Assembly (NCBI GenBank): GCA_001784175.1
Contig: MFPR01000028.1
Coordinates: forward strand, 163,955 to 227,954
Source of the DNA: Candidatus Lindowbacteria bacterium RIFCSPLOWO2_12_FULL_62_27
GTDB lineage: Bacteria > Lindowbacteria > 2-12-FULL-62-27
Direction of reading: 5' to 3'
Length of the DNA: 64,000 bases
This document shows, piece by piece, positions 33,486-57,413 of the stretch (position 1 is its first letter; every line of letters begins with the position of its first letter). Made by a program: the position numbers and the translations under genes. The notes beneath the pieces were generated by a model. The model ran no database searches. It was not told the DNA's origin and worked only from the letters and a program-made list of their open reading frames with translations.

Positions 33486-35132
33486 ATGAAATCTTTCGTC
33501 AAAGGATTAATGCTTGTGGCGATCATGGCGTGGGTGATGCTCGCGCTGTCGGATATGCCGGCCATGGCATGGTTTGACGCCGACACAGCATCGCGCGTTG
33601 ACACCTCGTATGCCGCCACCGACATCGACACCATCATTCAAAGCGGTATCCCCGGTGACGGTCTGGAAGGCGCCGCCGATGAAACCAGTGCGGGACGTTT
33701 GTGGGTTACCTATGTCAAGACCAACGGACAGAAGACCAGCGCCCAGAAGACGGGTACGCAGTACGACACGTATGTGTCCGACACGGTGCTGGGTGTGCCG
33801 ACAGGCATGCTGAGCATTCAGTGGGCCTATGACAATGACAGCCGCCAGCGCCAGTTCGCCCCGCCATTGGAGGGCTTTACCGGATGGGTCGGCAACAACA
33901 CGAAGATGGAGAAACTGCCGCGTGACACGCAGTGGGTGTTGCCGGAGAGCGGCGAAACCGTGCCGCTGGATGACCAACTCTGCTTTTTGGTCATTGAAAC
34001 CGCCGACACCGGGTCGGTCAAGCTCAACATCGTCAACACCAGCAACTACGCCTGTTCGTTCGTCCTGCTGGTCAACTTCCCGGACACCGATTTCAACGTC
34101 GGCCAAGTCCCGCAGGGCGCGAAATGGCTCACGGAGGGATCGAGCCTTCGGGACCGCTTTATTGTCAGCGTCGGCCAGAATGCCGACTCCGGCAACGGTC
34201 TGGACGGCAACCGCCTGGACACCATCTCGGTGCAAGGCACCGTCGTGAAGATTGACGCGCACATCAACAGCGTGCTCCTGGCGGAAGAAGCGGAGACACA
34301 ACTCTGGTTGCGATTCGCCGCCGATACGAGCGCCGCGGCTCGAGACTCGATGAGCGTCACCGTCCAGCTCATTGGTGACACGGAATACGGCGGCCTTCAG
34401 TGGGGCACGAGTCGCCACACCCGTATCTTTCACGACAGCGGGTACTACGGCGACAACGACACCCACTACGGCGAAGGCGGCTCCTCGGATTCGGTGTCGA
34501 TCTTCGTGCTGGTGGCGACCGCGATCGTGCGGGTCAAGAAGACCGACTCGGTCTTCGCCCCCACCAGTTATGTCAACGTGACCGCAAGTAGAATTTTCGG
34601 AGACACGGCCCAGCGCGAGCGCGACACAGTGCCCGGCGCGACCATCATCTACGAGATAACCTATGATAACGATGGAAACCGCCGAGCGGACACCGTCGAC
34701 ATCATAGACTTTTTGGACAGCAACGTCGACTTTGCGATCGACACGATCAACTCCCGGTGGGATACGACGTATTTCAACACCGGCGTCGACACGCGTATGA
34801 CGCATGCGCGGCCCGCCAACGCGGACACGTATGTCTACGTTGCGTTCAGTTTGCGCGGAACGCCGTCCGTGTTCGGCGAAACGCAGGTCAACTTTAACGC
34901 GATTGGCAACGGGAAATCCACCGTTGAGACGGTCGCAGCCGTTCGGATTCGCTGGAACCCAGCGACGAACAACGATGCGGCTCTCAGGCGCGACCAGATT
35001 GACGAGCCGGCGGGCAACTCGACCGCCACGTGGGATCCGCTCGACAGGGTGGAGAGCTGCACCATTTTGACCACCGCCAACAGCGACAGCGGCGACTGCG
35101 GCCGGATTCGCTACCACGTAGTGATCCGGTAA
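33486..35132 (+). CDS. Secreted DT-rich surface protein with DUF11-like C-terminal module (paralog 1)
   Basis: RBS AGGAGG; signal peptide PAMA; VRVKKTD..PGATIIYEITYDNDG; ends RYHVVIR. Confidence 0.85.
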   Translation: MKSFVKGLMLVAIMAWVMLALSDMPAMAWFDADTASRVDTSYAATDIDTIIQSGIPGDGLEGAADETSAGRLWVTYVKTNGQKTSAQKTGTQYDTYVSDTVLGVPTGMLSIQWAYDNDSRQRQFAPPLEGFTGWVGNNTKMEKLPRDTQWVLPESGETVPLDDQLCFLVIETADTGSVKLNIVNTSNYACSFVLLVNFPDTDFNVGQVPQGAKWLTEGSSLRDRFIVSVGQNADSGNGLDGNRLDTISVQGTVVKIDAHINSVLLAEEAETQLWLRFAADTSAAARDSMSVTVQLIGDTEYGGLQWGTSRHTRIFHDSGYYGDNDTHYGEGGSSDSVSIFVLVATAIVRVKKTDSVFAPTSYVNVTASRIFGDTAQRERDTVPGATIIYEITYDNDGNRRADTVDIIDFLDSNVDFAIDTINSRWDTTYFNTGVDTRMTHARPANADTYVYVAFSLRGTPSVFGETQVNFNAIGNGKSTVETVAAVRIRWNPATNNDAALRRDQIDEPAGNSTATWDPLDRVESCTILTTANSDSGDCGRIRYHVVIR

Positions 35133-36389
35133 TCCAGCATGGAGGAGACGGTATCGACAGAGCGTAGAGCATAACCACACGCGTCGTTCGAAAGCGACAG
35201 GCCAATGCGCCCCAAAAGGGCCGGCCAGGCCTGTCACGCGGAGAATGGACGCAGAACGGAGCGGCAAAGATGGTTCCAGTTGGAGATCGATCACCCTCGG
35301 AAGGTGGTGATGGGCCGAAAGGCTGAAGGACAACCGAGGGCGTTGGTTGAAACGCCGGGAGAGAGTGTCCAAGACGGGGATGTTCCAGGCCACGAGGTCG
35401 GTAAGCGCCTCGCATGCGCGTGGAGTGTCCACCCCGTGGGCTCTGTAGACCCGGCACAACGACGGAACCTGTTTTGTGTTGCTTCGATCTGCGCAAGCAG
35501 TACATTCTTCCACGCTGACAGGGCTGTGGACGGTGCTAGACCTAATTTAACCGAGGGATCGGGGTCGGTGAGTACGATGGACCCGGTTTCCGGAGCGACG
35601 ACGGACACGCGGAACATCCGTGTCCCAGCTTCCATTACCGCCGGCCAAGCCTCCGGCCGGGCGGTAGGGTATGAGTTTCGTTCCGAACGTCTTGATCAAT
35701 GTGAGCGTTCAGCGATGGTCCAATCCCATCGATCCACGCTTCGAGATCGGGCGGCGCGGACATCCCGGAGGTATTTTCCCCGCCATCTGTTTTACCTTCG
35801 ATACCGCCTCAGACAAGCCATGACTTTTGCTCATGGCATGGGTCTGGGATCTCGTCGTGGTTTGTCCCTGGGGGCAACGGGGGCGGAAACAGAGAGCGGC
35901 CTCATGGAGAGAGGTGATGTGAGACTGCGATAGAGGATGCCGGCCGGCGAGATGCGGCCGAGAAAAACAAATACAGGTACGGCCTCCTAACTTGGATGTA
36001 TCAAGGGTTCAAATCCCGAATACATGCCGTAGGGGAGAGGAACCTAGGGAATATTGCTGGCCCTGCGACGCAGGTTGGAACGCGGGGAATATTCCCAACA
36101 TATTGAGAGCGTAAAAGCTCTCAGCGAAGTCGGTGAGGTGAGGCTGCGCGTTCGGTAGGTCTGCGCAGCAGATACCAGGCCGCAGTCGATGTGGATAGTT
36201 TACACGCAAAGTCCTTCAAGACTTTGAGCGGAGAGAGTCTGTCCCCAACGGCTGACGAGACTTAGCAGGGTAAAGGTCTTGCCCCTGATGGCGGGCAAGG
36301 TGAGCGAAGCGATTGACCGCTTTGCATAGGAAAGGTGTTGCCCAATGAGATTGACGAAGGCGAACGATAATAAGGAGGAATATAAGGGT
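35133..36389 (+). ncRNA. Candidate large structured RNA (unassigned)
   Basis: 1.25 kb without a credible ORF; dense hairpins with GNRA loops and G-U pairs in + orientation; T-loop hairpin at ~36005-36017; long-range complementarity to other spacers. Confidence 0.6.
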
Positions 36390-37802
36390 TTGTTAAAGTT
36401 ATTCCTACAGCGGAATAACTTCACGCCCCTCGTCTGCCTCCTCGCCTTCGGACTTGTTTCGCTCTTCATCCTTCCGGCGAACGCCGTTTTCTTCAACTAC
36501 AGCTCCGGCAGCACCGGCGCCTACAACACCGACTCCGGCACAGCCATTCGCAGCGAGGGCCAATCGAGCGCGATCACCCCGACGCCCGGATCGTTCGGCC
36601 TGACCTACTACCGCGCGAACGTCAAGGTTGCGGCCAACACCGACACGCGCTACGGCGTCGTCGGGCCGGCGGATTCGAGCAGTCCGCGGGTCAAGGCGAT
36701 CTACGGCGATACGCTGTCCGTCCTTTCCGGGCCTTCCACGCCGAACGACACGGTCGTCATCGCCGGCACGTCCGACTTCGACACCGTTTACCTCACGGCC
36801 GACACCGCCGTTTCCGGCGATGTCCTGACTTACGTCCTCGCCGTCACCAATTACGGCAACGCCGCCGATACCATCGGCCTCATCGTCGACAGCGCCTGGA
36901 CCCGCGGCGCCGGCACCGATACGTCCACCGGCCGGTTCAGCTACCAGTTCTTCGACCGGACCGGCGCGGCTCTGACCGGGATCCTGACGCTGGCGCATCA
37001 GGACACGGCGAAGGTCGCGCTCAAGGCGGACACGGGCGTCGAGACCGCGAGCCTGAAGATTTACACCGCCGGCGCCTCCAACGCCGACACCGTCCGGATG
37101 TTCGTCCGGGCCTTCGCGAACAACGGCAGCGGCCGGGCCATGGCGACGAGCGGCGAGGTCGCGCCGTATGTGGGGTTGAACGGCGTCAAGTACGGCGGGA
37201 GCGGCAACGCCTCGACCTTCTTTGAGGTCACCGTCAGCGGGCCGCTGGTGCGGCTGGCCAAGTTCGACACGGTATTCGCGCCGGTGTCGCTGGGCGGCGC
37301 CACCGGCGCGGCCGTGGATGACACGCAGCACTACGTGCCCGGCGCGATGCTGGTCTATACGATCTGGTTCGACAACGACGGCAACGACACCGCCGACACG
37401 ATCGTCATCGAGGACTGGATCGACACGCGGCACCTGCGGTTTGACAGCGCCGGCCTTTCGCAACTGCGCGGCGTCGCGCAGATCGCGGCCTCCGGCGCGC
37501 TTGCGGACTCATTCTACGGAAACATTTATGCCGACAGCAGGATGCCGAACATCGGCGGGGCGGTCTTCAGCATATCGATCCAGTATTCCTCCGGCGGCGA
37601 CTCCTTTGCCGGATTGACGGAGGCCACGCCGCTCGAGTCGGTCGGCCGCTTGCGGTGGACGATCGGCCGGGTCGGCACGCGGGGCGTGGTGGGCGCGAAC
37701 AACGGCGACGATGTCGAGGCCGTCGACCTGCCGCCGGTTGCGGCGGGCGCGGCGTCCGACGTGGACATGGGCTACGTGCGCTTCGCGGTGGTGATCCGAT
37801 GA
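36390..37802 (+). CDS. Secreted DT-rich DUF11-like protein (paralog 2)
   Basis: TTG after TAAGGAGG; signal peptide PANA; VRLAKFD..PGAMLVYTIWFDNDG; ends RFAVVIR. Confidence 0.85.
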   Translation: MLKLFLQRNNFTPLVCLLAFGLVSLFILPANAVFFNYSSGSTGAYNTDSGTAIRSEGQSSAITPTPGSFGLTYYRANVKVAANTDTRYGVVGPADSSSPRVKAIYGDTLSVLSGPSTPNDTVVIAGTSDFDTVYLTADTAVSGDVLTYVLAVTNYGNAADTIGLIVDSAWTRGAGTDTSTGRFSYQFFDRTGAALTGILTLAHQDTAKVALKADTGVETASLKIYTAGASNADTVRMFVRAFANNGSGRAMATSGEVAPYVGLNGVKYGGSGNASTFFEVTVSGPLVRLAKFDTVFAPVSLGGATGAAVDDTQHYVPGAMLVYTIWFDNDGNDTADTIVIEDWIDTRHLRFDSAGLSQLRGVAQIAASGALADSFYGNIYADSRMPNIGGAVFSISIQYSSGGDSFAGLTEATPLESVGRLRWTIGRVGTRGVVGANNGDDVEAVDLPPVAAGAASDVDMGYVRFAVVIR

Positions 37803-40800
37803 TGGCCCTGCTGCGAGTCCTGATGGCGTCGATTGCGGTCGCGTTCGTGTTCATGACTGCGTTCGTCGGCGCGCCCGTTTGGGCGGATGACACGGCGAGC
37901 CTGTTCGGCCCGGTGCAGAAGACGACGCCGGGCGGGATGGGCCTGACGGCGACGGTGGCCGACGGCGTCGCGGTCACGACGCCGACGCAGGCGGGCGCGT
38001 ACTACTTCAAGATCAGCACAACGCTTGATTCGACCTACGCCCTGCGCACGGCGCTCAGTTCCTACGCCGCGCGCGTGGACACGATTCCGTACATCCGGCG
38101 GGTCGACACGATCTACAGCGACACGATCGGCCTCACGAGCGAGAACGTCGCGAGCGATCCGCTCAAGGACACGGGGCGGACCATCTTCAAGGGCGACACC
38201 GCGACCTACATCCTGGCGCTGACGAACCTCGGCAACTCGACCGATTCGATCGGCCTCGTGATCGACACCGCCACCGTCGACAGCTACGCCGGCGTGAACT
38301 TCGACACGATCCCGAACTGGTCCGCGCACTACTACGACTCGCGCGGCGTCCTCATCGGCAAGGCCTCCGGCCTGGACCGCGACACGGTCTTCATCCGCCT
38401 GTCGGCCGGCAAGTCGGAGACGGTCACGGTCAGGATCTACAGCGACTCGGCCGCCTGGGACACATCGTCCATTCAGCTTACGCTCGGGGCGTTTGCGGCG
38501 AACGGCAACCGGTACAAGTTCGCGGTTCGGGCCTACCGCGGATTCACGGGCGACACGTTCGGCGGGGATGGGCACGACTCGATCACGCTGTATGTGAAAC
38601 TCAAGGCGACGACGGTCCTGCGCGTCGCCCGCGCCGACACGGCGCTGTCCGTGTCGCTCGGCAGTCACGCGTCGGACGCGAACATCACCGACACGCAGCA
38701 TTTCGTGCCGGGCGCGATCGTGGTGCGGACGATCTGGTTTGACAACGACGACAGCTCGCCGGTCGACACGCAGGTGGTGGTCGAAGACTGGATCGACACG
38801 CGGTTCCTGCAGTTCAGCAGCGCCGGCGCCGGGGCCTTGGGCGCGGGCCAGACCGCCGCGTCGGGCGCGCTCGTCGCCGGCCAGTACGGAAACATCTTCG
38901 TCGACAGCGGCATGCCGAACAACATGACCGGCGCCACTCAGATCGACGTCCGCGTTGAATATCTAACCGGCGCCGGCTGGACGCAGCTTACGCAGGCGAT
39001 TCCGGCGTCGAGCGTCGGGCGGCTGCGCTGGACGATCACGCGCGTCGCCGGGACGGGGGCGCTGGTCGGCGCGACGAACGGCGACGGCGCGCTGGCGATC
39101 GATGCGGCGCCGGCGGCCTTCGGCGCGGCCACCGATTCCGACATGGGGTACGTCCGGTACTCGGTCGTGATCCGGAGCGACAGCAGCGCGGCGAAGGGTC
39201 CGGGGCGGCCGGAGTCGGGGGTTCTCGTCGGCATCAATCCGTCGGCCGCCGGGTTCGACTCGGCCTTCATCGAGCCTGACACGAAGGGTCTGAGCGCGCG
39301 GACAACCTTTGTGTCCGCACTGCTCGCCGAGTATCTGCCGAACGTCGACATCGTGCCGGAGACGCTGTCGGCCCAGAAGATCCAGCAGACCGCCGGCGAC
39401 ACGTTCTACTTCCCGCACCGGATTGGCAGCCACGGCAACGCGCCCGACAGCTTCGCGGTGAGCGGCACGACCACGATCGACGCCATCGGCGGCCGGGTCA
39501 CGTTCCTGCTTGACATCGGCAACGCCGGGTCGTTTGACGGATTCGAGCCGAAGCTCGATACCTTCACGCTCAACGGGTCGATGACCGACTCGAAGGACGT
39601 CCTGGTCGCCGTGTTTGTGCCCGCGGGATACTCCGGCCATGACACCGCCTATCTGCGGGTGGCGTCGGTCCGGAACCGCGCGTTCTACGACACGGGCACG
39701 GACGTGTTCCGGGTGGTCGGCGCATCGCAGGTGGCGCCGGACACGGCCCAGCCGCAGACGGTGGGATCGGGCGATTCGGTCTCGTTCACGTTCTTCCTGA
39801 ACGTTCCGCCGACGGAGGACACGATCATCCTCGTTCTGGATTCGCCGCCGCTTGGCGGCCCGGCAGCCGACTCGGTCGTCATCACGATTACCGAGTCCGG
39901 TACCGTGAAAGTGTCGGACAGTTCGGTCACGGTGACGCTCGATACGACCACCGGCCAGCTCACGATCACGTTCACGGAAACGCCGCGGTCCGACACGTAC
40001 GTGTGGCAGGTGACGGTCCAGGAGACGGACAGCGGCTCGATCAAGGTCACGTTCAGTGACAGCGGCCAGTTCATCATCGACACCGTGCCGCCGTTCGTCA
40101 CGGACACGAACCCGGCCCGGCTGTTCATTGTGGACACCACGCTGGTGGGCGCCGAGACGACGATCAGCATCCGGATCATGGATACGGCCCTCGGCGACAC
40201 GACGACCGGGATCGATTCGCTCGTCATCACGATCCTTGACACGGCCGGCACGGTGGTCCGGGTCGACACGATCGACGCCTACACGCTGTATCAGTTCCCG
40301 TTCGACACGAGCGGCGCCTTTACCGTGCAGGTCGTCGCGATCGACAACGCCGGCAACACCGTGGCCCTGCCCGACTCGCTGCCGGTCGTGATCCCGGTCA
40401 AGCGCGTGATCGACCTCGTGGCCGCCGACAAGTTCAGCGCGGAGGAGAAGGACGACGTGGCGAAGGGCCTGACGGCGCAGGGGATTGTGCGGGTGAAGGA
40501 TCCGGGCGCGAACAAGGACGGGACGAGCTTCGACCGGATCGAAGTCACCATCCTCTCGGACGCCGACCTCATCGGATTCACGCTGCAGCTCGACGAGACG
40601 TCGATCAACAGCGGGATGTTCCAGGGGACGCTTGGATTCACCAACGGCGTCACCAACGCCAACGCGAAGAAGATCAAGGTCCGCGACGGCAGCGTCATCA
40701 CCGCCAAGTATGACGCGGATGGCAGCGCCGGGCCGGTCGTGTTCATCGCGGACCAGATCGCGTGGCAGGGCGAGGTCATCAAGGATCTGGACCGCGTGCG

Positions 40801-41077
40801 GACGTGGCCCAATCCGTACAACCAGTTGACCGATCCGTGCGCCTACTTCCACAACCTCCCGTCGGATCCGCACATGACGATCGAGCTCTACAACCTGAAC
40901 GGCGAGATCGTCATGACGCTGCGGGTCGGCCAGGAGATCACCCACTCGGCGAACCAGAACCTCGGATGCTGGGACGGTCGGAACAGCCGCGGCCAGATGG
41001 TGTCCAGCGGCACGTACATTTACCTCGTGCGGTCGAGCGCCGGCACGAAGGTCGGAAAGATGACGATAGTGCACTAA
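37799..41077 (+). CDS. Large secreted DT-rich protein: DUF11-like module, Ig-like repeats, C-terminal T9SS-CTD/FlgD-like domain (paralog 3)
   Basis: Signal peptide PVWA; internal PGAIVVRTIWFDND..RYSVVIR; C-terminal WPNPY..IELYNLNGE..WDGRN..G..VSSGTYIY. Confidence 0.85.
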   Translation: MMALLRVLMASIAVAFVFMTAFVGAPVWADDTASLFGPVQKTTPGGMGLTATVADGVAVTTPTQAGAYYFKISTTLDSTYALRTALSSYAARVDTIPYIRRVDTIYSDTIGLTSENVASDPLKDTGRTIFKGDTATYILALTNLGNSTDSIGLVIDTATVDSYAGVNFDTIPNWSAHYYDSRGVLIGKASGLDRDTVFIRLSAGKSETVTVRIYSDSAAWDTSSIQLTLGAFAANGNRYKFAVRAYRGFTGDTFGGDGHDSITLYVKLKATTVLRVARADTALSVSLGSHASDANITDTQHFVPGAIVVRTIWFDNDDSSPVDTQVVVEDWIDTRFLQFSSAGAGALGAGQTAASGALVAGQYGNIFVDSGMPNNMTGATQIDVRVEYLTGAGWTQLTQAIPASSVGRLRWTITRVAGTGALVGATNGDGALAIDAAPAAFGAATDSDMGYVRYSVVIRSDSSAAKGPGRPESGVLVGINPSAAGFDSAFIEPDTKGLSARTTFVSALLAEYLPNVDIVPETLSAQKIQQTAGDTFYFPHRIGSHGNAPDSFAVSGTTTIDAIGGRVTFLLDIGNAGSFDGFEPKLDTFTLNGSMTDSKDVLVAVFVPAGYSGHDTAYLRVASVRNRAFYDTGTDVFRVVGASQVAPDTAQPQTVGSGDSVSFTFFLNVPPTEDTIILVLDSPPLGGPAADSVVITITESGTVKVSDSSVTVTLDTTTGQLTITFTETPRSDTYVWQVTVQETDSGSIKVTFSDSGQFIIDTVPPFVTDTNPARLFIVDTTLVGAETTISIRIMDTALGDTTTGIDSLVITILDTAGTVVRVDTIDAYTLYQFPFDTSGAFTVQVVAIDNAGNTVALPDSLPVVIPVKRVIDLVAADKFSAEEKDDVAKGLTAQGIVRVKDPGANKDGTSFDRIEVTILSDADLIGFTLQLDETSINSGMFQGTLGFTNGVTNANAKKIKVRDGSVITAKYDADGSAGPVVFIADQIAWQGEVIKDLDRVRTWPNPYNQLTDPCAYFHNLPSDPHMTIELYNLNGEIVMTLRVGQEITHSANQNLGCWDGRNSRGQMVSSGTYIYLVRSSAGTKVGKMTIVH

Positions 41078-41130
41078 TGCCCGCTTGGAGCGGGATAGAT
41101 CGGGCCAGGAAAACGAAAGAGGTGATGTGT

Positions 41131-42636
41131 ATGAACCAGGGGAAGAAGTTGAAAGGGGCACTGAGGGAGTACGGCCTGCTGTGGACGTACTATCTCCTTG
41201 TATTAACAGTGCTGATTGTCGCGTCGCGGCCGGCGATGGGGGCGTCGACCGGCACGACGGGCGCGCCGTTTCTGAAGATTTCGGTCGGGTCCCGGCCGGC
41301 GGCGATGGGGTCGGCCTACACGGCCGTGGCGGAGGAGCCGTATGCGCTCCATTACAACCCCGCGTCGATCGGCCACATGGACCGGTGGGACCTGTCGGCC
41401 ATGCACCAGGACCAGTTCGGCGAGGTGAGCTTCGACTATTTCGGGCTTGCCGCGCCCGCGATCAAGAACCGTTCCGGCTGGGGGATGTCGTTCGTCCGCA
41501 TGGCGGTGGACGACTTCTCCCGGACGGAACTGGACGACGGCGTCAAGTTCACGAACGCGGACATGGCGCTGACGGCGACGTATGCGCACCGGATCTTCAA
41601 GCCGCTCAGCTTGGGCGTGAGCGGCAAGCTGATCAAGCAGACGCTGGCGCAGTACACGGCGAACGGCTGGGCCGTGGATTTTGGAGCGCATCTCAAAGTG
41701 AACCCGCGCCTGTCCCTGGGCGCGTCCATTATGAATATCGGCCCCGACATCACCTTCATCGCGATCGGCGATCCCCTGCCGACGACCCTCCGCGCGGGCG
41801 GCGCATTGAAGCTCCTGCCGCGGGGAAACCTCCTGGCCACGATGGATTACTGGATGCCGAAAGACGACGCGAAGGGATTCGGCATGGGCGTCGAGTATCG
41901 TCCGAGCCGGTTTCTGGCGTTTCGCGGCGGCTATCAACTTGGCACGTCGTTCCGCGGATTCAACGCGTCCTCTTTTGGATTGACCTTTGATTTTGACAAT
42001 TTCGGAATCGAATACGCGTTTGTTCCGCGCGAGAAGCTGGGCGACGTGCATCGCGCGGGTCTGAACGTTTCGTTTGGCGGGAAGAAGCCGGAAGTCATCG
42101 CGCAGCGGAAGCGGGATGTGCGCCGGAAGGAAACCGTGCGGCGCCCGCAGCGCGAGCCGGCCGTTCAGTCGGTGTCGGTGCGCGCGGAGAAAGCGCCGGC
42201 GCCGAGCGTGCCGGTGGCGGCGCCGGTGGCCGCGCCGGTTGAGCAAGAGGTACCGGCGTGGAAGAGCGTGCTGGCGGAGAGCGGAGAAGGAACGTGGGCG
42301 GTGGCGGCGCAAGAGGAAAGATCGGCGAAGGAATCAGCGCCGGCAGAGGCGCCTGTCTCACCGGCGCCGGCGCAGGAGGAAAGGCCGGCATCGGCGTCCA
42401 CGGAAGCGATCGTTCAGGAGAAACTCTCGATCGCATCAGGGCTGCTCCGGGATCAGCGGTATGAAGAGGCGGTGGCGATCATTCGCAGCGGACTGAAGGA
42501 AGATCCTCGGAACGTCCCGCTCTGGTACCTGCTGTCGGAGAGTCTGTACAAAATCGGCGAGTATGACGAGGCGATGGAAGCGGTGAACAGGGCGCTGACC
42601 CTGATTCACAGCGGACGGGGTGGCATAGCTCCATAA
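41131..42636 (+). CDS. PorV/PorQ-like outer-membrane barrel with C-terminal TPR
   Basis: APFLKISVGSRPAAMGSAYTAVAE..ALHYNPA N-terminal motif; barrel strands; Pro/Ala linker; TPR. Confidence 0.8.
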   Translation: MNQGKKLKGALREYGLLWTYYLLVLTVLIVASRPAMGASTGTTGAPFLKISVGSRPAAMGSAYTAVAEEPYALHYNPASIGHMDRWDLSAMHQDQFGEVSFDYFGLAAPAIKNRSGWGMSFVRMAVDDFSRTELDDGVKFTNADMALTATYAHRIFKPLSLGVSGKLIKQTLAQYTANGWAVDFGAHLKVNPRLSLGASIMNIGPDITFIAIGDPLPTTLRAGGALKLLPRGNLLATMDYWMPKDDAKGFGMGVEYRPSRFLAFRGGYQLGTSFRGFNASSFGLTFDFDNFGIEYAFVPREKLGDVHRAGLNVSFGGKKPEVIAQRKRDVRRKETVRRPQREPAVQSVSVRAEKAPAPSVPVAAPVAAPVEQEVPAWKSVLAESGEGTWAVAAQEERSAKESAPAEAPVSPAPAQEERPASASTEAIVQEKLSIASGLLRDQRYEEAVAIIRSGLKEDPRNVPLWYLLSESLYKIGEYDEAMEAVNRALTLIHSGRGGIAP

Positions 42637-42914
42637 GCTCAAGAGTTCAGAACTAAGTACTCGAAGCTTTCTTCGAAGAGAAGAAAGATCGCGGAAAAAA
42701 ACGTTTTCGATGAGGTGGGTCATAAAGAAGCAGGGGTGGGTAAAAAAGATGAAGTGGGACCAGTAGAAAGTGGGAAATTCGTAAGGAGGTGGTGGATCAA
42801 GGGTAAGTGAGGTTCGGTAGAGTGGGTTCCAGAAAAAGGCGGTAAGCTGATCTTCAGGAAAAAAGCAACTTCCTGAAGGCGTGGTAATTATATCCCATCT
42901 GTCAAAGATTTTCA

Positions 42915-42943
42915 TTGACAGAGGCTGTTTCCAACTGTATAAT
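42915..42943 (+). promoter_or_regulatory. Consensus sigma70 promoter
   Basis: TTGACA(42915-42920)-17 bp-TATAAT(42938-42943), a perfect match. Confidence 0.85.
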
Positions 42944-43325
42944 TTGGGAACGGGATACGATTATAGGCACATAAGGCTGAAAAGTGAATTTCAGCCCGAA
43001 AGTTAAAAAATTTTTTGGAGCGAAACGTCATGATCGAAATGAAAACAGAAGTCGAAAGTCAAACAGATACGAACGAGGTCGAAGCGGTTGTTCAGGATCG
43101 TCGCACCGTTTTGGCGCAGGCCATCGGGCGCACTACGGCCGGCCCGGCCTGCGATAAACCCGCAAGACCGAGTTCAACCACAGCGTGTGGCTATGCTCTA
43201 CGCTCAAACACGCAGGGCGACCCTCCGATGGCCCGGAGCGAGATGGTTCCAACCCATCCGGATTGCCTTATGAAGGGTAACTGAAGCAACGGCGGAAACG
43301 CCGAACAAAGAAGGAGGTCAACACG

Positions 43326-44948
43326 GTGGGGTGTTGGCGGAACAAGGTGGGGTTGAATTTCATAGTGGGGCTCGTTCTGGCCACGATGATCGTGTGCCCG
43401 GCCGAGGCCTATCCGCCGAACCAGACGGACACGTGGGCGGGCGCCACGAACATGGATTCGTCCATCATCAACGGCGTGCCCGCGGATCTGAACACATCGG
43501 CCGACAGTCTTCCCGGGCGATTGTTTGTGGGTTACACGAAAGGCAACGGCGTGCGGACGAGCGCCGCGCAGGCGGGAACGCAGAGCGACACGTATGTGTC
43601 CGACACGGTGCTGGGCGTTCCAACGGCCGAGCTGACGATCGAATGCATCTACGACGTGGACAGCCGAAGCCGGCAGATCCTGCCGGGTCTGGAGGGATTT
43701 GGCGGGTTTTCCGGCGTATCGGGCGAAACGTACCCGCGGTGGCCGCTCCCGCTCGAAAGCGGGGACACCGTTCCCGTGGTGGACAGTCTCGCGATCGTGA
43801 TGCTGGAGACCAACGACACTGCGGCCGTTCTCATCAACATATACAACACGAGCAACTATTCGTGTTCCTTCGTCATCCTCATTAATTTCCCCGACACGGA
43901 TTTTCACGTTGGCCGGCCTCCGACCGGCGGGACCTACGACAGCGAGGAGGCGGTTTTGCTGGACAAGTTCATCGTGGGCTTGGGCGTGAATCCGGAGACG
44001 GGCGTGGGTCCCAACGGCCGGGTCGACAACATCACGACGGCGAGCAACGGCGGCTCGCCCGTCGTGGCGTATCCGCACGTGTTGAGCGTTCTGATCGCCG
44101 AGGAGGCCGAGACGTCCTTTTATCTGCGAATCGCCTCGGACACCAACGCCTTCGCGCGGGATTCGCTGTGCATCACGGTCTTGTGCATCGGCGACAGCGA
44201 GTACAACAGCGTGGCGTACGGCGGCCGGCGGCACACGCGGATCTGGGACGACAGCGGGTACTTCGGCGACAACGACTCGCACTATGGCCGGGGCAGCTCG
44301 CAGGATTCGGTGTCGATCTGGGTCCTGGTGGCGACCGCGGTGGTGCGCGTGAAGAAGACCGACTCGATCTTCGCGCCCATCGGCTACCGGATGGCGGTGC
44401 AGGGCGGCGCGGGGACCGACACGAACGCGCGCGCGCGGGACACGGTGCCGGGCGCGACGATCGTGTACGAGATCACGTACGACAACGACGGCAACCGGCG
44501 CGCCGACAGCATCTTGATCATCGATTTTCTGGACAGCAACGTCGATTACAACGTGGGCCCCTTCTACAACGCCAACGGCAGCGACTCGTTCTACTCGACG
44601 AACGGCGTCGACACCCGGATGACGCATGCGCGGTGGATGGCGGACAACGTCGACACGCAGGTGATCGTGGAGTTCAGCCGGCGGAACGCCATGGACGAGT
44701 TCATTCAGGAAACGACGATGCTGGTCCAGTCGACCGACTCGATCATGGACTCGGTGGCGGGCATCCGGATCCGGTGGTCCGTGGCGACGCTGAACGGATC
44801 GCTCAAGCGGGACCAGGCGGACGACGGCTCGTATTCGGGATCGGTCCTGGACGATCTGACGACGGTGGACGGTTGTGCGATCACGACGGCGGCGTCGAGC
44901 GACAGCGGCGACTGCGGCCGGATCCGGTTTTCGGTGGTGATCCGGTAA
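43326..44948 (+). CDS. Secreted DT-rich DUF11-like protein (paralog 4)
   Basis: AAGGAGG then GTG; signal peptide PAEA; colinear homolog of 33486; ends RFSVVIR. Confidence 0.85.
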   Translation: MGCWRNKVGLNFIVGLVLATMIVCPAEAYPPNQTDTWAGATNMDSSIINGVPADLNTSADSLPGRLFVGYTKGNGVRTSAAQAGTQSDTYVSDTVLGVPTAELTIECIYDVDSRSRQILPGLEGFGGFSGVSGETYPRWPLPLESGDTVPVVDSLAIVMLETNDTAAVLINIYNTSNYSCSFVILINFPDTDFHVGRPPTGGTYDSEEAVLLDKFIVGLGVNPETGVGPNGRVDNITTASNGGSPVVAYPHVLSVLIAEEAETSFYLRIASDTNAFARDSLCITVLCIGDSEYNSVAYGGRRHTRIWDDSGYFGDNDSHYGRGSSQDSVSIWVLVATAVVRVKKTDSIFAPIGYRMAVQGGAGTDTNARARDTVPGATIVYEITYDNDGNRRADSILIIDFLDSNVDYNVGPFYNANGSDSFYSTNGVDTRMTHARWMADNVDTQVIVEFSRRNAMDEFIQETTMLVQSTDSIMDSVAGIRIRWSVATLNGSLKRDQADDGSYSGSVLDDLTTVDGCAITTAASSDSGDCGRIRFSVVIR

Positions 44949-45132
44949 TGGCCTCATCTGAAACGGTGGAAGGAATTCTGAGCGGCACAGGAGTCACCGC
45001 AACAATGGGTCTCACACCCTCTCCCTCTCTGCGAATGAAGAGAGAGGTTGAGGGTGGAGGACTTTTCGATAGATCGAAATGGGTTACGGCGATTTTCGCC
45101 GTAGCAGAAGTCTGAATCAGGGGGTTAGAGGT

Positions 45133-46776
45133 ATGAAACCGATTGTAAAAGGGTTGATTTTGGCGGCGTTTCTTGCGGGGGTTTTGGCGGCGTTCATGGC
45201 CACACCGGCCATGGCATGGTATGACGCTGACACGGCATCCCGTGTGGACACTTCGTATACCGCCACGGACATCGACACGAGCATTATCAACGGTATCCCC
45301 GGTGACGGTCTGGAAGGCACCGATGATACACAGGCCGGACGTTTGTGGGTTCGCTATGTCAAGACCAATGGGCAGTTGACCAGCGCCCAGAAGACGAGTA
45401 CGCAGTATGACACGTACACGTCCGACACGGTGCTGGGCGTGCCGACGGGCATGCTGAGCATTCTGTGGGCCTATGACAACGACAGCCGACAGCGACAGTT
45501 CGCTCCGCCTTTGGAGGGCTTTACCGGCTGGGTCGGCAACAACACGAAGATGGAGAAACTGCCGCGTGACACGCAGTGGGGGCTGCCGGAGAGCGGCGAA
45601 ACCGTGCCGTTGGATGACCAACTCTGCTTTTTGGTCATTGAAACCGCCGACACCGGGTCCGTCAAGCTCAACATTGTCAACACCAGCAACTACGCCTGTT
45701 CGTTCGTCCTGCTGGTCAACTTCCCGGACACCGATTTCAACGTAGGCCAGGTTCCGCAGGGCGCCACATGGGGCACAGAGGGATCGAGCCTTCGGGACCG
45801 GTTTCTCGTCAGCATCGGCGAGAGTGCCGACACCAGCTTGGGCCTGAACGGCGCTTCCCGGGACACCATCTCGACGGAAGGGACCGTCGTGCGGGTCCAG
45901 CCCCACATTCTCGGCGCGCTCCTGGCGGAAGAAGCGGAGACGCAACTCTGGTTGCGATTCGCCGCTGACACGACCGCCAGCGCCCGGGATTCGCTCAGCA
46001 TCACCGTCCAGCTCATTGGTGACACGGAATATGGCGGCGTTCAGTGGGGCACGCTTCGCCACACCCGGATCTGGCACGACAGCGGGTACTACGGCGACAA
46101 CGACACCCACTACGGCGAGGGCGGTTCCTCGGACTCGGTGTCGGTTTTTGTGTTGGTGGCGACCGCGATCGTGCGTGTCAAGAAGACCGACACGGTCTTC
46201 GCCCCGACGAGTTACGTTCGTGCCACCGCGGCCGCAATCTTCGGAGACACGACCTCGCGCGAGCACGACACCGTGCCGGGTGCGACGATCCTTTACGAGA
46301 TCACCTATGACAACGATGGAAACCGCCGAGCGGACACCATCGACATCATAGACTTTCTCGACAGTAACGTCGACTTCAAGATCGACACGTTCAACGACCG
46401 GTGGGATTCGTCGTATTTCAACACCGGCGTGGACACGCGTATGACGCATGCGCGGCCCCGCAACAAGGACACGCTTGTTTACGTTTCGTTCAGTTTGCGC
46501 GGCACGCCGTCTGTGTTCGGCGAAACGCAGGTCAACTTTAACGCGATTGGCAACGGGAAATCCACCGTTGAGACGATCGCGGCCGTTCGGATTCGATGGA
46601 GCCCATCGGCGAACAACGACGGGTCCCTCAGGCGCGACCAGGTTGACGAGCCGGGGGGCAACTCGGCCGCCACGTGGGATCCGCTCGACAGGGTGGAGAG
46701 CTGCACCATTTTGACCAGCGCCAACAGCGACAGCGGCGACTGCGGCCGGATCCGGTTCGCGGTGGTGATTCGGTAA
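45133..46776 (+). CDS. Secreted DT-rich DUF11-like protein (paralog 5, near-duplicate of 33486)
   Basis: Signal peptide PAMA; long DNA blocks nearly identical to 33486-35132; ends RFAVVIR. Confidence 0.88.
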   Translation: MKPIVKGLILAAFLAGVLAAFMATPAMAWYDADTASRVDTSYTATDIDTSIINGIPGDGLEGTDDTQAGRLWVRYVKTNGQLTSAQKTSTQYDTYTSDTVLGVPTGMLSILWAYDNDSRQRQFAPPLEGFTGWVGNNTKMEKLPRDTQWGLPESGETVPLDDQLCFLVIETADTGSVKLNIVNTSNYACSFVLLVNFPDTDFNVGQVPQGATWGTEGSSLRDRFLVSIGESADTSLGLNGASRDTISTEGTVVRVQPHILGALLAEEAETQLWLRFAADTTASARDSLSITVQLIGDTEYGGVQWGTLRHTRIWHDSGYYGDNDTHYGEGGSSDSVSVFVLVATAIVRVKKTDTVFAPTSYVRATAAAIFGDTTSREHDTVPGATILYEITYDNDGNRRADTIDIIDFLDSNVDFKIDTFNDRWDSSYFNTGVDTRMTHARPRNKDTLVYVSFSLRGTPSVFGETQVNFNAIGNGKSTVETIAAVRIRWSPSANNDGSLRRDQVDEPGGNSAATWDPLDRVESCTILTSANSDSGDCGRIRFAVVIR

Positions 46777-46969
46777 GAGGCAGCGTGAAGAAAGGGGTGG
46801 TGTGATCGGGATGCTTGGGATCTTACACTCATGCGTCACGTGATCCCATGCAGCGGGCTTTAACCCTCTGAGGCAGGCGGCGGTCCGACCCCGCCGCGCA
46901 ACACGCCGCCGAGGCCGCGGGTTTGATCCCCGCCGTCAAACGGACAGAGGGAGGCTCATGCCCGTCCGA

Positions 46970-48433
46970 CTACATCTTGGGGAGATCGCCTCTGGCTCGG
47001 AGGAATTCGTAGAAGAGCCGGACGCCGATGCCCGTGGCGCCGGGGGGCCGGCCATCGCGGCCCCGGGTGTCCCATGCTGTGGCGGCGATATCGAGGTGGG
47101 CCCATGGGACGTGTTCGTCGGCCAGGAATTTTTTGAGAAACATTCCGCCGATGATGGTCCCGGCCAGCCGTCCCTCGGGGATGTTCTGGACATCGGCCAC
47201 GGAGCTTTTGATGAGCCGGTCGTATCCGTCGTGGAGGGGCAGTCTCCAGAGTCGTTCGCCGCAGGTTTCGCCGGCCTCCTGGAGGGACTGCGCGAGCGCG
47301 TCATTGTTGGAGAGGATGGCGGCGTAGACATCCCCGAGCGCGATGGAACACGCGCCCGTGAGGGTGGCCATGTCGATGACGGCTTCGGGCCGGAAGCGGC
47401 CGGCGTAGAAAAGCGCGTCGGCGAGGATGAGGCGGCCCTCGGCGTCGGTGTTTTTGACCTCGATGGTCTTGCCGGAGAGGCTTCGGACGACGTCTCCCGG
47501 CCGGGTGGCGGCGCCTCCGGGCAGATTTTCCGTGAGGGGCGCAAGGCCCACGAGCGGGACGCGCGGTTGGAGCGTGCGTGCGGCGGAAAAGATTCCGATG
47601 ACCGCCGCCGCTCCGGACTTGTCGTGTTTCATCTCCTCCATCTTGTCGGAGGGCTTGATGGAGATGCCGCCGGAATCGAAGGTGACGCCTTTGCCGACGA
47701 GGACGATCGGACGGCCCGCGGTCGGAGATTTTGGATTTTGGGTTTTGGATTTTGGATTGTATTGAAAAACCAGAAAGGCCGGGGGCTCGTGGCTGCCGCG
47801 GGCGACGGCCAGGAAGGCGCCCATGCCGAGCCGTTCGCAGGCGCGGCGGTCGAGGACTTGGACGCGGACGGCGCCGCCGGAAAGTTTGCGGGCGCGCCGG
47901 GCGAGTTCGGCCGGGGAACCCATGTTGCCCGGGAGATTGGAAAGGTCGCGCGCGAGATCGACGCCGTCGGCGACGGCTTCGATGTAATGGAGGAGGGACC
48001 CGATCCGTCCGCGTTCGGCGGCGGACCGGCACACGATGGCAAGGGATTCCAGTGGTTTGTCTTTGGGCGCTTCGGAACGAAGAGAAAACCGGTATTGCGA
48101 CAATCGGACGCTTTCGGCGAAGATTCCCGCGGCTTCTTCCGCATCCGGCAGGGGCCATGCGTCCGTTTCAAAGGTCACGTGCCGGACGCCGCGGCCGGCG
48201 AGTTCCTGCGCGGCTTCCGCAGAGGCTTTTCTCAGGCCATCGCGCTCGAATTTGTCTTTCGGGCCAAGTCCGACCGCGAGCCGGTGCGCGTCATCGCCGG
48301 GCAGGAAGAGCCGCTCGCCGGATTTTCCGTGAAAATCGGCGGCCGGCGTCGGTTTCTGACCTTCAAAGAAAAATCGGATGCTGCATCCTTTGCGAGGCGG
48401 CCTTCGCCCGCCAACTTCCGCGAACAATCTCAC
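46970..48433 (-). CDS. pepA: Leucyl aminopeptidase (M17)
   Basis: VGKGVTFDSGG, MKHDKSG, NTDAEGRL, ATLTG, WAHLDIA; GTG start overlaps the upstream stop. Confidence 0.93.
   Translation of the reverse strand: MRLFAEVGGRRPPRKGCSIRFFFEGQKPTPAADFHGKSGERLFLPGDDAHRLAVGLGPKDKFERDGLRKASAEAAQELAGRGVRHVTFETDAWPLPDAEEAAGIFAESVRLSQYRFSLRSEAPKDKPLESLAIVCRSAAERGRIGSLLHYIEAVADGVDLARDLSNLPGNMGSPAELARRARKLSGGAVRVQVLDRRACERLGMGAFLAVARGSHEPPAFLVFQYNPKSKTQNPKSPTAGRPIVLVGKGVTFDSGGISIKPSDKMEEMKHDKSGAAAVIGIFSAARTLQPRVPLVGLAPLTENLPGGAATRPGDVVRSLSGKTIEVKNTDAEGRLILADALFYAGRFRPEAVIDMATLTGACSIALGDVYAAILSNNDALAQSLQEAGETCGERLWRLPLHDGYDRLIKSSVADVQNIPEGRLAGTIIGGMFLKKFLADEHVPWAHLDIAATAWDTRGRDGRPPGATGIGVRLFYEFLRARGDLPKM
47727..47758. 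repeat. Heptamer tandem repeat (GATTTTG)n inside pepA
   Basis: About 4.5 copies; encodes NPKSKTQNPKS. Confidence 0.85.
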
Positions 48434-49635
48434 TTGATGACGACTCTGAACCGGATCCGCATGGTGTCGCCCGGGAGGAAGGGCTGGATGGGGGTATCGA
48501 TCTGGACAAACAGCGAATCGCTCGTGGCGGTGGCCATGACGAATTTGACGTGATCGCCGTCGTTGGTGTCGGTCTGGGTAATGAACCTGTGCCGTGTGTC
48601 GATGTCGATGTTCGAGACCACTTTGGTTCCCTTGTACTCCGTGTTGGTGGGCACAAAGTCCACGATGCGGACATTGTGGGCCGGGGTGTAGCCTTCCGTG
48701 TTGGAGACGGTGATGGTGTAGACGAGGGTCGCGCCCGGAATGGTTTCGCCGGGGCGTTCGCCCTTGGTGGAGACGCTGTCGGCGAGTTTTCGGACAAAGA
48801 GGAATTCGGCGCCGATGGAGTCGCCGTAGCCGGTCAGAAGTTCCTGCTGGTTGTCCCAAGTGTCGATGGCCGTGATGTACCAGACCCAGTAGGTGTCGAT
48901 CCGGGGAGACCGTTCGCCGGGCCCTTTGCCGACGTGGGTGTCGATGAAGCGGAACTGTCCGAGTCCTGCGTTGTAGTAGTAGTTGTCCGGTTTTGAATCA
49001 TCCCCTGTGACGGCCCTGGTGACATTAATGAAGAGCTCGGTGTCGTTGGGCGGATATCCGGAATCGCGCCAGACGACGTAGTATTTGGCGTAGGTGTCCT
49101 GGTACCAGGTGAATCGCACCGTGTCGGTCTGGTCGGCCTGCGCGGCGATTGTTTCCGGCGGTTCGGCGAGGACCGTGCGAATGCCCATGGGCGTGACGAT
49201 GGTTTCGCCGAGGGTGGCGCCGGTATCGGCGCTGAAGACGCGGATGCGGAGGCGCGTATTAGGGATGAGGGTGTCGGGCACGTCGGCCCGGACGTTCCAG
49301 CGGGCGCTGTAGGTGGACCCGGGCGTGAGGCAGGTGTAGCGGGGCGTGGAGTCGCCGTTTCCATCGAGCGGCCCGCGGTTTTGCGCGCCGCCCTCGTTGG
49401 TGTAGAAGGTCATTGAGTCGTAGGTGTCGTCGACATAGGTATCGTATTCGAAAATCACCGTGCAGGAGTTGACGCCCACGTAGGACAGTTTGAACCTGTA
49501 GGCGGCGCGCCGCCCGCCGACGGTGTCGTTGGTGACGAAGTCGAAGAGTTCGACCGTATCGTCCGCGCGCGCGCAAGCGGGAACCAAGAGCATCCCGATC
49601 CCAAACAAAATTCCGAACCAGCGAAAATTTGCCAT
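48430..49635 (-). CDS. Secreted DT-rich DUF11-like protein (paralog 6)
   Basis: Signal peptide; FVRKLAD..PGATLVYTITVSNTEG..DFVP; ends RFRVVIK. Confidence 0.85.
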   Translation of the reverse strand: MANFRWFGILFGIGMLLVPACARADDTVELFDFVTNDTVGGRRAAYRFKLSYVGVNSCTVIFEYDTYVDDTYDSMTFYTNEGGAQNRGPLDGNGDSTPRYTCLTPGSTYSARWNVRADVPDTLIPNTRLRIRVFSADTGATLGETIVTPMGIRTVLAEPPETIAAQADQTDTVRFTWYQDTYAKYYVVWRDSGYPPNDTELFINVTRAVTGDDSKPDNYYYNAGLGQFRFIDTHVGKGPGERSPRIDTYWVWYITAIDTWDNQQELLTGYGDSIGAEFLFVRKLADSVSTKGERPGETIPGATLVYTITVSNTEGYTPAHNVRIVDFVPTNTEYKGTKVVSNIDIDTRHRFITQTDTNDGDHVKFVMATATSDSLFVQIDTPIQPFLPGDTMRIRFRVVIK

Positions 49636-49678
49636 CCGGTGCTATTCTATCCTGAATCTTTTGCGCGTCAAAGTTTTT

Positions 49679-57371: not shown

Positions 57372-57413
57372 CCCCCCTCACCTCAATCCTCTCCCCCCTG
57401 CGGGGGGAGAGGA
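57372..57413 (+). repeat. REP-like palindromic element
   Basis: CCCCCCTCACCTCAATCCTCTCCCCCCTGCGGGGGGAGAGG. Confidence 0.8.

Follow-up and report, generated by a model that had tools for sequence, protein, structure and literature searches.

In Escherichia coli, the small RNA (sRNA) IstR-1 has 21 nucleotides (nt) of complementarity to a single-stranded site located far upstream in the structured 5′ region of tisB, according to the passages on this pair in PMC4147584. IstR-1/tisB and the divergent type I pairs ohsC-shoB, orz-zor and agrB-dinQ, which are treated in the same passages, each have a locus-encoded sRNA with its own promoter. In Staphylococcus aureus, the 5′ untranslated region (UTR) of the icaR mRNA pairs with its 3′-UTR, and the complementary segments thus lie at both ends of the transcription unit (PMC3868564, in the part dealing with this mRNA). 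At the DNA level, the invertons catalogued with PhaseFinder have inverted repeats around a promoter segment beside cell-surface genes (PMC11892184 and PMC11602134, each in part). Here, we analyzed an inverted pair of 23-nt sequences in a 64,000-nt stretch (the window; contig MFPR01000028.1, positions 163,955 to 227,954, forward strand) of Candidatus Lindowbacteria bacterium RIFCSPLOWO2_12_FULL_62_27. All coordinates are positions in this window; the genome itself is called G000, and its relatives are called G001, G002 and G003. On the + strand, the gene order is PriA, an F5/8-type-C protein, paralog 1 of a surface-protein family, a 1.2-kb stretch without an annotated gene, paralogs 2 and 3, and a gene encoding a PorV-like barrel fused to TPR repeats (PorV/TPR). 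The last of these ends at 42636 and is followed by an AT-rich gap holding a promoter (42915-42943), by the right arm of the pair and then by paralogs 4 and 5. A full-text search of the literature for Candidatus Lindowbacteria gave no title or abstract with this name, and nothing on the RNAs of this phylum, among the matches listed.

By analogy, the locus would work most like local antisense-type sRNAs such as IstR-1 or, in a variant acting in cis, like icaR. As in the E. coli pairs, to the extent that those passages describe them, a locus-encoded RNA (the R RNA below) would have its own promoter, which is predicted here. Near-perfect complementarity over approximately 20 nt is located at a good distance 5′ of a structure-buried start codon and clear of the ribosome-binding site, and the duplex would be long enough for RNase III. 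The geometry of the left site is that of the IstR-1/tisB standby-site mechanism, in which the start codon is locked in structure and 21 nt of pairing away from the ribosome site are enough. However, the buried ATG opens a frame of 242-375 codons whose sequence is not conserved, 8 kb separate regulator and target, which share one strand instead of being divergent neighbors, the similarity extends imperfectly over ~100 nt, and the host belongs to an uncultured candidate phylum known from sequence alone. No small hydrophobic toxin open reading frame (ORF) was found behind the left arm, where the frame in G000 has 242 codons and is Arg-rich and unconserved in sequence; because there is no small toxin, the type I toxin-antitoxin class fails. 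The likeness to icaR, as far as the cited part goes, would consist in complementary segments at both ends of a transcription unit if the operon is read through, whereas here the unit spans 8 kb and is polycistronic, its 3′ partner has a promoter of its own and its 5′ partner does not lie at a Shine-Dalgarno sequence. The invertons, as characterized in the cited parts, share with the locus the inverted repeats around a promoter segment beside surface-protein genes. In contrast to them, the locus was seen in one orientation only, has no recombinase close by and has arms of unequal spacing; its segment measures 8 kb compared with a few hundred bases, and the right arm lies inside a conserved, predicted transcript.

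The inverted pair and its conservation

The left arm is a 23-nt core, GAGCGTAGAGCATAACCACACGC, with the half-boxes GCGTAGAG and AACCACAC (L; 35160..35182, + strand). Its complement, GCGTGTGGCTATGCTCTACGCTC, forms the right arm (R; 43183..43205, + strand). An inverted-repeat search of the window showed that the two arms are complementary at 22 of 23 positions (96%) with 8000 nt between them, and both are present as an earlier note on this DNA had written them. With up to three mismatches allowed, the 23-mer was found twice in the window, and two matches were reached in 0 of 100 dinucleotide shuffles. In the whole genome (4,388,263 bases), it occurred once forward and once in reverse, with no further copy. 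The earlier note had named a common dispersed repeat as the finding that would overturn its reading; with two copies in 4.39 Mb, this objection fails. All inverted pairs in the 64-kb window that matched at 22 or more of 23 positions were the L/R pair and pairs from an unrelated GC-rich palindromic repeat, and the same count on shuffled sequences gave none in 29 of 30 cases and one pair in the remaining case. A profile of a longer element of ~100 nt, built from all seven copies, matched two places in the genome (E 1.7e-22 and 1.3e-15), the third-best match having an E value of only 0.6. Because there are only two genome copies, and given the shuffle controls and the profile search, the L/R pair is neither a dispersed repeat nor a chance product. 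We also considered a miniature inverted-repeat transposable element or transposon terminal repeats. Only two copies were present in the genome, the element was in place in every relative with the site assembled, no target-site duplication was seen by eye in the sequence flanking either arm, and no convincing extension of the match outside the 23 nt was found in G000.

The comparison set consisted of three genomes of the same family, each from another genus (G001-G003); other relatives shared only the domain. The relatives that carry the pair are groundwater bacteria. The gene order from PriA to the PorV/TPR gene was identical in all three, and the left arm was found at the orthologous place in each of them, with 1 (G001), 3 (G002) and 1 (G003) mismatches in 23 positions, compared with only 65-78% identity in the neighboring coding DNA. 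In G002, the right arm GACGTGTGGTTGGCTCTACGCC follows the PorV/TPR gene at a distance of 8.7 kb from the left arm and is inverted relative to it. The same holds for the right arm of G003, GCGTGTGGTTGCAGACTCTACGC, at 8.25 kb. An inverted pair thus surrounds the same gene block over 8.0 kb in G000, 8.7 kb in G002 and 8.25 kb in G003. Both sites were assembled in two relatives, G002 and G003, and the inverted pair was present in both; complementarity between orthologs, the point on which the earlier note had wanted its reading checked, was therefore kept in 2/2 cases. An independent metagenome contig, a second assembly of G002, showed the same arrangement as G002.

The contig of G001, an 88%-complete genome, breaks off within paralog 3, and a search of this genome gave no right arm. 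A BLAST search of the right region against 40 relatives gave no match; the right copies of G002 and G003 were recovered through contig ends and a pattern search. When the genome collection was scanned with this pattern, the contigs of G001-G003 were matched, together with one match each in a Bacteroidia and a Coriobacteriales metagenome-assembled genome, which we took for chance matches. A metagenome scan with alignment to the PorV/TPR protein returned only this organism, G002 again and two unrelated loci of 28% identity.

The pair is part of a larger element. The half-boxes are 3 nt apart in 4/4 left arms, and the spacing in the right arms is 3 nt in G000, 2 nt in G002 and 5 nt in G003, so that the right spacing differs from the left by -1 and +2 nt in the latter two. 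Box0 (GGAGGAGACGG; 35141..35151, + strand), which makes up the outer portion of the left element, is conserved in 4/4 genera, and an inverted counterpart of Box0 stands beside the right core in G002 (12/13) and in G003. In both of these genomes, inverted similarity runs from the GGAGGAGACG box (Box0) via the core to a GC-rich hairpin centered on GGCCGGCC, with 75 (G002) and 70 (G003) identical columns over ~100 nt; alignment scores were 38-72 for the inverted orientation versus 23-46 for the direct one. In G000, the flanks of the right copy have diverged, yet its core is the best kept of all (22/23). Several changes are common to both arms of a lineage. Position 35160 is A in both G003 arms and G in both G000 arms, both G002 arms have G at 35161 and C at 35171, and Box0 reads GGAGGAAGA in both G003 arms. 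The cognate right arm was the best match for two of the three left arms in alignment, and complementarity with matching changes (35160, 35161, 35171 and Box0) holds in 3/3 genera that have both sites, although such events are few. A second conserved feature accompanies both arms. The GATGGTCCAATCCCATC hairpin (GATGG hairpin) occurs at 35714..35730 (+ strand), where it is conserved in 4/4 spacers, and just after the right arm at 43242..43258 (+ strand). The genome has only these two copies, both on the + strand and in direct orientation to each other; therefore, a single inverted duplication does not fully account for the left and right regions.

The right unit and the region behind the left arm

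The right arm follows a predicted sigma-70-type promoter, TTGACA-17-TATAAT (42915..42943, + strand), that matches the consensus at 12/12 positions. Its counterparts scored 11/12 in G002 and, by eye, 8/12 in G003. A +1 motif, GGGAACGGGATACG (42946-42959 in G000), is conserved in 3/3 genera, and GGGAACGGGAKACG comes after the promoter in all three. The proposed R RNA (42946..43275, + strand), with putative ends, would be ~320 nt long here and ~375-390 nt long in G002 and G003. Approximately 235-300 nt past the promoter and +1 motif come a GC hairpin, the core and then an outer stem. The hairpin (GCGCAGGCC ... GGCCTGCG; 43114..43153, + strand) is that of the right element, is GGCCGGCC-centered and has counterparts in G002 and G003. 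By consensus fold prediction, the right arm (43183-43205) can fold on itself using G-U pairs, its length-variable middle forming the loop. The outer stem, GGCGAC.../...GGATTGCC (43215..43266, + strand), encloses the second copy of the GATGG hairpin and is weakened in G000; in G002 and G003, it reads GGCGTC/GACGCC (GGCGUC...GACGCC in RNA) around the GAUGG hairpin. It is followed by UUUUU in G003 and by UUAAGUUU in G002, and the terminator scan called a terminator-like site at the G003 outer stem with the tail GCCTTTTTGC.

No reading frame in the right unit is shared by the three genera. A small protein was rejected as a candidate, as the stop-to-stop frames over the core differ in both frame and sequence among them. 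At the gathering threshold, Rfam 15 gave one tRNA only for the window; when E values up to 5 were admitted for 35100-36400 and 42600-43400, the only matches had E values of 4.9 and 4.3, far below gathering scores. A seeming second leader of the right type on contig C20 was a chance match within coding sequence. The evidence for an independent unit is predicted throughout and comprises the three promoter-like sites (12/12, 11/12 and 8/12), the +1 motif in 3/3 genera, the terminator call in G003 alone and the lack of a conserved frame. On these predicted features, the right element would be a free-standing non-coding unit of 320-390 nt. It is older than paralogs 4 and 5, because the unit in G002 and G003 has a terminator-like stem end and a convergent pepA next to it. 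The earlier note had placed the right arm in the leader of paralog 4. Ancestrally, this does not apply, since G003 and G002 have the convergent pepA as the next gene and no paralog 4 or 5 there; in G000, the R RNA probably continues as the leader of paralogs 4/5.

Several minor observations concern this unit. In G003, the contigs L016 (C109) and L027 (C19) overlap by exactly 141 identical bases (1-141 in each) over the right element, and the next contig past this overlap continues with the 3′ end of the convergent pepA and then hisA. In G002, a 30-nt stretch around the GATGG hairpin occurs twice with 100% identity, after the right element and beside pepA (L015 (C11) 135-165 and L043 (C90) near 12524-12553; also L040 (C158)). 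Between these copies lies other DNA, which by eye includes transposase-like and small-endonuclease-like sequence, and, in G002, the end of the R unit is a possible hot spot for insertions. At its start (42946-42959), the proposed R RNA resembles, by eye, Box0 (35141-35151) in direct orientation. The start of the R RNA can pair, also by eye, with the Box0 complement near its 3′ end over 8 bp in G002 and 10/11 in G003. Such pairing between the start and the 3′ end (43215-43226) would close the RNA end to end, and it is not evident in G000.

The left arm starts 28 nt past the stop of paralog 1, on the coding strand, and the terminator scan found no terminator-like site between the two. It ends 22 nt before an ATG (35205-35207) that is conserved in 4/4 genera. 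The left element's GC-rich hairpin (35195..35236, + strand) buries this ATG in its 5′ strand. The hairpin has a predicted energy of ~ -27 kcal/mol, and its sequence is near-invariant in the four genera, with variation in the apical loop. RNAalifold gave 15 pairs in the stem, none of them covarying, and 0 of 19 predicted pairs covaried overall. The 1.2-1.6-kb stretch behind the left arm contains at least seven conserved blocks with variable DNA between them. From the ATG, a long open frame runs through 35205..35933 (+ strand) with 242 codons, or 252 from stop to stop. The stop-to-stop frames of the four genera measure 252, 354, 385 and 289 codons, lengths that were reached in 2, 1, 0 and 3 of 1000 shuffles, respectively. 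The conserved blocks stay in one relative frame, and the distances between them vary by tens to hundreds of bases but always by multiples of three. The frame begins at the TAA within the core (35172-35174), which is in frame with the stop of paralog 1 (35130); these two stops share one frame in 4/4 genera, 12-14 codons apart, and within the left core only the third position of the Ala codon preceding this TAA varies.

An ordinary protein gene in the spacer was rejected, as six-frame segment BLAST gave short matches in all frames at the blocks conserved at the nucleotide level. The frame is Arg-rich, with G+C at third codon positions of ~0.60 versus 0.73-0.90 in the real genes here; its translation is not conserved outside the nucleotide blocks and has no Pfam match, and no similarity of the long + frame to the paralogs was found (E at least 0.44). 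Behind the frame, an alignment of the four genera shows a conserved non-coding leader of paralog 2 with blocks E-G (35934..36344, + strand). It holds a hairpin near 36000-36030 with a T-loop-like 7-nt loop (GGTTCAAATCC near 36008, then GCC), a block GTAGGGGAGAGGAAC and a hairpin at 36105-36122 whose stem GAGAGC/GCTCTC is, by eye, swapped on both sides for AGCGTCC/GGACGCT in G003. No Rfam match was found for this leader.

Readings of the pair

Tentatively, and somewhat short of an even chance, we favor the reading that an inverted duplicate of ~100 nt, ancient in origin and best preserved in the core formed by the pair, acts at the RNA level. From sequence data, we infer that both arms are transcribed, that they pair and that every effect described below follows from this pairing. 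A locus-encoded, antisense-type R RNA could plausibly pair with the left site, with a probability again slightly below one half. The R RNA would have a strong sigma-70-type promoter of its own, immediately 3′ of the operon of paralog 2, paralog 3 and PorV/TPR, and the left copy would lie on the same strand, after paralog 1, at the head of a long region leading into that operon. The R RNA may act in trans, or it may form the end of operon transcripts that read through to the right element and then act in cis; the terminator scan found no terminator-like site in 42636-43183. The duplex between the R RNA and the left site would have ~20 bp, with a bulge or internal loop at the variable middle of the right arm, and would be looser over Box0 and the GC hairpins. 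Such a duplex would tolerate the unequal half-box spacing, whereas a recombinase core or a bipartite protein site would tolerate it poorly. Through this pairing, the upstream transcript may change in ribosome access to the buried ATG, in RNase III-type cleavage, and in how far it is transcribed or stable across the 1.2-kb region toward the operon. Should RNA polymerase depend on translation of the open frame to cross the 1.2-kb gap, the expression of paralog 2, paralog 3 and PorV/TPR would be set by pairing.

Several observations weigh against this RNA-pairing reading. The single mismatch in G000 places A opposite C on + strand RNAs and allows no wobble. Both arms are available in three genera only, and co-variation is thus limited to a handful of positions; moreover, homogenization at the DNA level, or gene conversion between repeats, is equally expected to give co-variation of the arms. 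Matched helices contain four transition differences, three of which would allow a G-U pair in the + sense; this proportion is not significant. Duplex energies across genomes showed no clear cognate preference, and only the left arm of G002 clearly favored its own right arm. In single-sequence folds, the cores are not consistently unpaired (probability of being unpaired, 0.18-0.62 for the left and 0.23-0.37 for the right). The G003 promoter is weak (8/12) and was missed by the promoter scan, and the U-run past the outer stem is clear in G003 only. A CCUCC box that would mask the ribosome site of paralog 4 was rejected, since the G000 fold pairs CCCUCC elsewhere and leaves GGAGG approximately half open. 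Finally, among the 12 listed sequencing runs with the stretch, none is on record as RNA.

The earlier note had offered, as one of two possibilities, that the arms bound an invertible cassette. In such a DNA inversion switch, the arms would be recombination sites, and an unlinked recombinase would flip the 8-kb block and uncouple the promoter at 42915-42943 from the right side. The genome-unique inverted repeats do bracket a block with an outward-facing consensus promoter beside surface-protein genes, the arms are alike within each lineage as if homogenized by recombination, and the genome has 13 tyrosine-recombinase matches over the cut-off and one resolvase-type match. However, in line with the earlier note, which had seen no recombinase encoded in the window, no recombinase family is among the Pfam matches there; the nearest PF00589 match is ~73 kb from the left arm, and the sole PF00239 match sits on another contig. 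Contigs of four runs from four studies, examined over 34600-43900, bridge both arms in the reference orientation only, a test of low power that rests on contigs, from which rare variants drop out, and in which three of the four runs may be the source of the assembly. Runs X1 and X2 each gave one 9850-nt contig over 35078-43900 with zero differences, and X4 and X5 gave separate contigs across each arm. Six listed joints were cross-matches between paralogs, none located at an arm and none changing strand. The same orientation was found in both assemblies of G002 and in G003, and hybrid junctions were found in 0 contigs of G000-G003. An assembly break in G003, with its 141-nt overlap, lies over the right element, but its bounds are 70 nt to the left and 48 nt to the right, away from the core itself; in G002, the breaks coincide with other repeated or mobile DNA. 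Half-box spacing is unequal between the arms of G002 (-1 nt, right relative to left) and of G003 (+2 nt), and no internal dyad is present in the arm. Exact runs shared between the arms measure 14 and 8 nt in G000, 11 and 8 nt in G002, and 10 and 11 nt in G003, lengths at which a short crossover within one half-box is still possible. Flipping the block would turn the promoter toward paralog 1 in antisense direction, and what would be gained by this is not evident. Of four inverton features, only the first was found, namely, inverted repeats flanking the segment (also in G002 and G003). With one orientation in the contigs of the four runs and in G002 and G003, unequal spacing and no nearby recombinase, we regard inversion as quite improbable; a block that does invert would be an unusually large inverton with a remote recombinase.

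The other branch of the earlier note, an RNA docking-site and selector switch in the leader of paralog 4, survives in part. RNA pairing fits better than inversion, because a non-coding transcript with its own promoter is predicted over the right arm, and the left arm would belong to a transcript region of the same orientation, whereas the paralog-4 leader and the selector fail. We also considered that the module of Box0, core and hairpin acts in the same sense on opposite strands, as a 3′-end or 3′-UTR element or as two sites of one protein, with complementarity as a by-product. Consistent with this, the right element in G002 and G003 follows pepA on the minus strand in the order Box0, core, hairpin, just as the left element follows paralog 1; the left hairpin is conserved in sequence with 0/19 pairs covarying, which suggests a specific binding partner, and the G000 mismatch would be a U-G wobble on minus-strand RNAs. 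However, pepA lies 3.7 kb away in G000 with no copy of the element after it, yet no right core is better kept than the one there (22/23). Transcription from the conserved promoter and +1 motif would cross the right element on the + strand, and the stem and U-run of G003 are oriented for the + strand. No sigma-70-like promoter was found on the minus strand in 35183-36366, the nearest being inside paralog 2. Variable half-box spacing speaks against one rigid protein site, and the accompanying GATGG hairpin is direct, not inverted. We consider such same-sense elements fairly improbable. It is very improbable, in our estimate, that the pair is a functionless relic of an old inverted duplication that has merely not decayed. 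The right-copy flanks have decayed in G000, as a relic would, but the cores are far better conserved than adjacent protein-coding DNA across four genera, both copies hold position and orientation in three genera, and several changes are common to both arms within a lineage. The probability left over from these four readings belongs to something not yet thought of.

The competing partners that the earlier note had given the right arm are both present in sequence, and neither is conserved in the relatives. The stretch at 36223-36235 is complementary at 12 of 13 positions to 43196-43208, i.e., reaching 3 nt past the 23-mer, and lies within a stretch that the spacer alignment shows to be missing from 3/3 relatives. 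GCGTGT at 43183-88 is opposite ACACGC at 43208-13, and ACACGC is kept in neither relative with the right site (G002 and G003). In a control with the strict 23-mer, a Watson-Crick match of 12/13 arose in 1 of 20 shuffles of the inner 8 kb. Both the 36223-36235 partner and the local GCGTGT/ACACGC fold are probably fortuitous.

In Salmonella, the sRNA ChiX controls Rho-dependent polarity on chiPQ. By analogy, if an sRNA kept ribosomes from translating an upstream frame, the RNA could become exposed and transcription could halt before the downstream genes. Purely by this analogy, ChiX-like polarity would explain why a frame of 250-385 codons without sequence constraint stays open between the left site and the operon. 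Extending the RNA-pairing reading, we speculate on a three-part RNA device, which we consider unlikely. It would combine a frame that must be translated but is free in sequence, a hairpin-locked start behind a 23-nt landing site, and an RNA, born from an inverted duplicate, that controls the operon. In the frame of 250-385 codons, only openness and frame would be conserved, and its translation would be needed to cross the 1.2-kb gap. An RNA of 0.3-0.4 kb at the far end of the operon would pair with the landing site and set operon expression; with read-through, the same pairing would clasp both ends of the transcript. If the RNA-pairing reading is right, a candidate phylum known only from metagenomes would have a conserved regulatory RNA and its target site, and a PorV-like outer-membrane protein and surface-protein paralogs would be tied to an RNA encoded 8 kb away. 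The regulator would apparently have been born through inverted duplication of its own target, and the open, sequence-free frame would be a testable case of translation mattering as an act, not for its product. The interest of the locus lies in this conserved long-distance pairing, in a regulator derived from inverted duplication of its target and in the open frame free in sequence, should the proposal hold.

Neighboring genes and palindromic repeats

Paralog 1 (33486..35132, + strand; C-terminus ...VVIR*) belongs to a DUF11-like surface-protein family with weak DUF11/DUF7619 matches. It is 84% identical to paralog 5 and 51% identical to paralog 4, and its orthologs stand at the same place in G001-G003. 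The enclosed genes (36345..42636, + strand), which are syntenic in G001-G003, are paralog 2 (36345..37802, + strand), paralog 3 (ending at 41077, + strand), with a CHU_C/FlgD_ig-like tail, and the PorV-like barrel fused to TPR repeats (about 41.1 kb to 42636, + strand). Paralogs 4 and 5 (43326..46776, + strand) follow the right element in this genome only; both are absent between the right element and pepA in G003 and G002. pepA encodes an M17 leucyl aminopeptidase (46970..48859, minus strand; Peptidase_M17, E 3.3e-116). Its orthologs adjoin the right element in G003 and G002 and are convergent to it; in G000, 3.7 kb that include paralogs 4 and 5 separate it from the right element. A 531-codon + strand ORF at 46958-48553 is a high-G+C artifact, the real gene being the minus-strand pepA. 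In G003, the right element, pepA and hisA come in direct succession, and two minus-strand ORFs that flank pepA in G000 (48430-51871; one with a weak DUF11 match) are also absent from the locus. Because these paralogs and ORFs are missing at the G003 locus, G000 has expanded the surface-protein family around pepA.

Other inverted repeats in the window are of different kinds. The paralogs end in ...GDCGRI..VVIR*, where the RI and IR codons make a CCGGAT...ATCCGG inverted repeat (VVIR-motif sites at 35096-35132, 44912-44948, 37777-37799 and 39153-39175); in paralog 3, the same VVIR motif is internal, with ~630 more codons beyond it. GC-rich palindromic repeats, CCCTCTCCCC..GGGGAGAGGG with GGGGTGAGGG, occur near 28247-28275, 31134-31225, 51794-51832 and 57372-57412 and contribute more inverted pairs; the copies at 31134-31225 are inside the long ORF called PriA. 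These repeats look like the BoxC/PIT type. They form inverted pairs in the window, as L/R does, but they belong to another sequence family and have many copies, compared with the two of the 23-mer.

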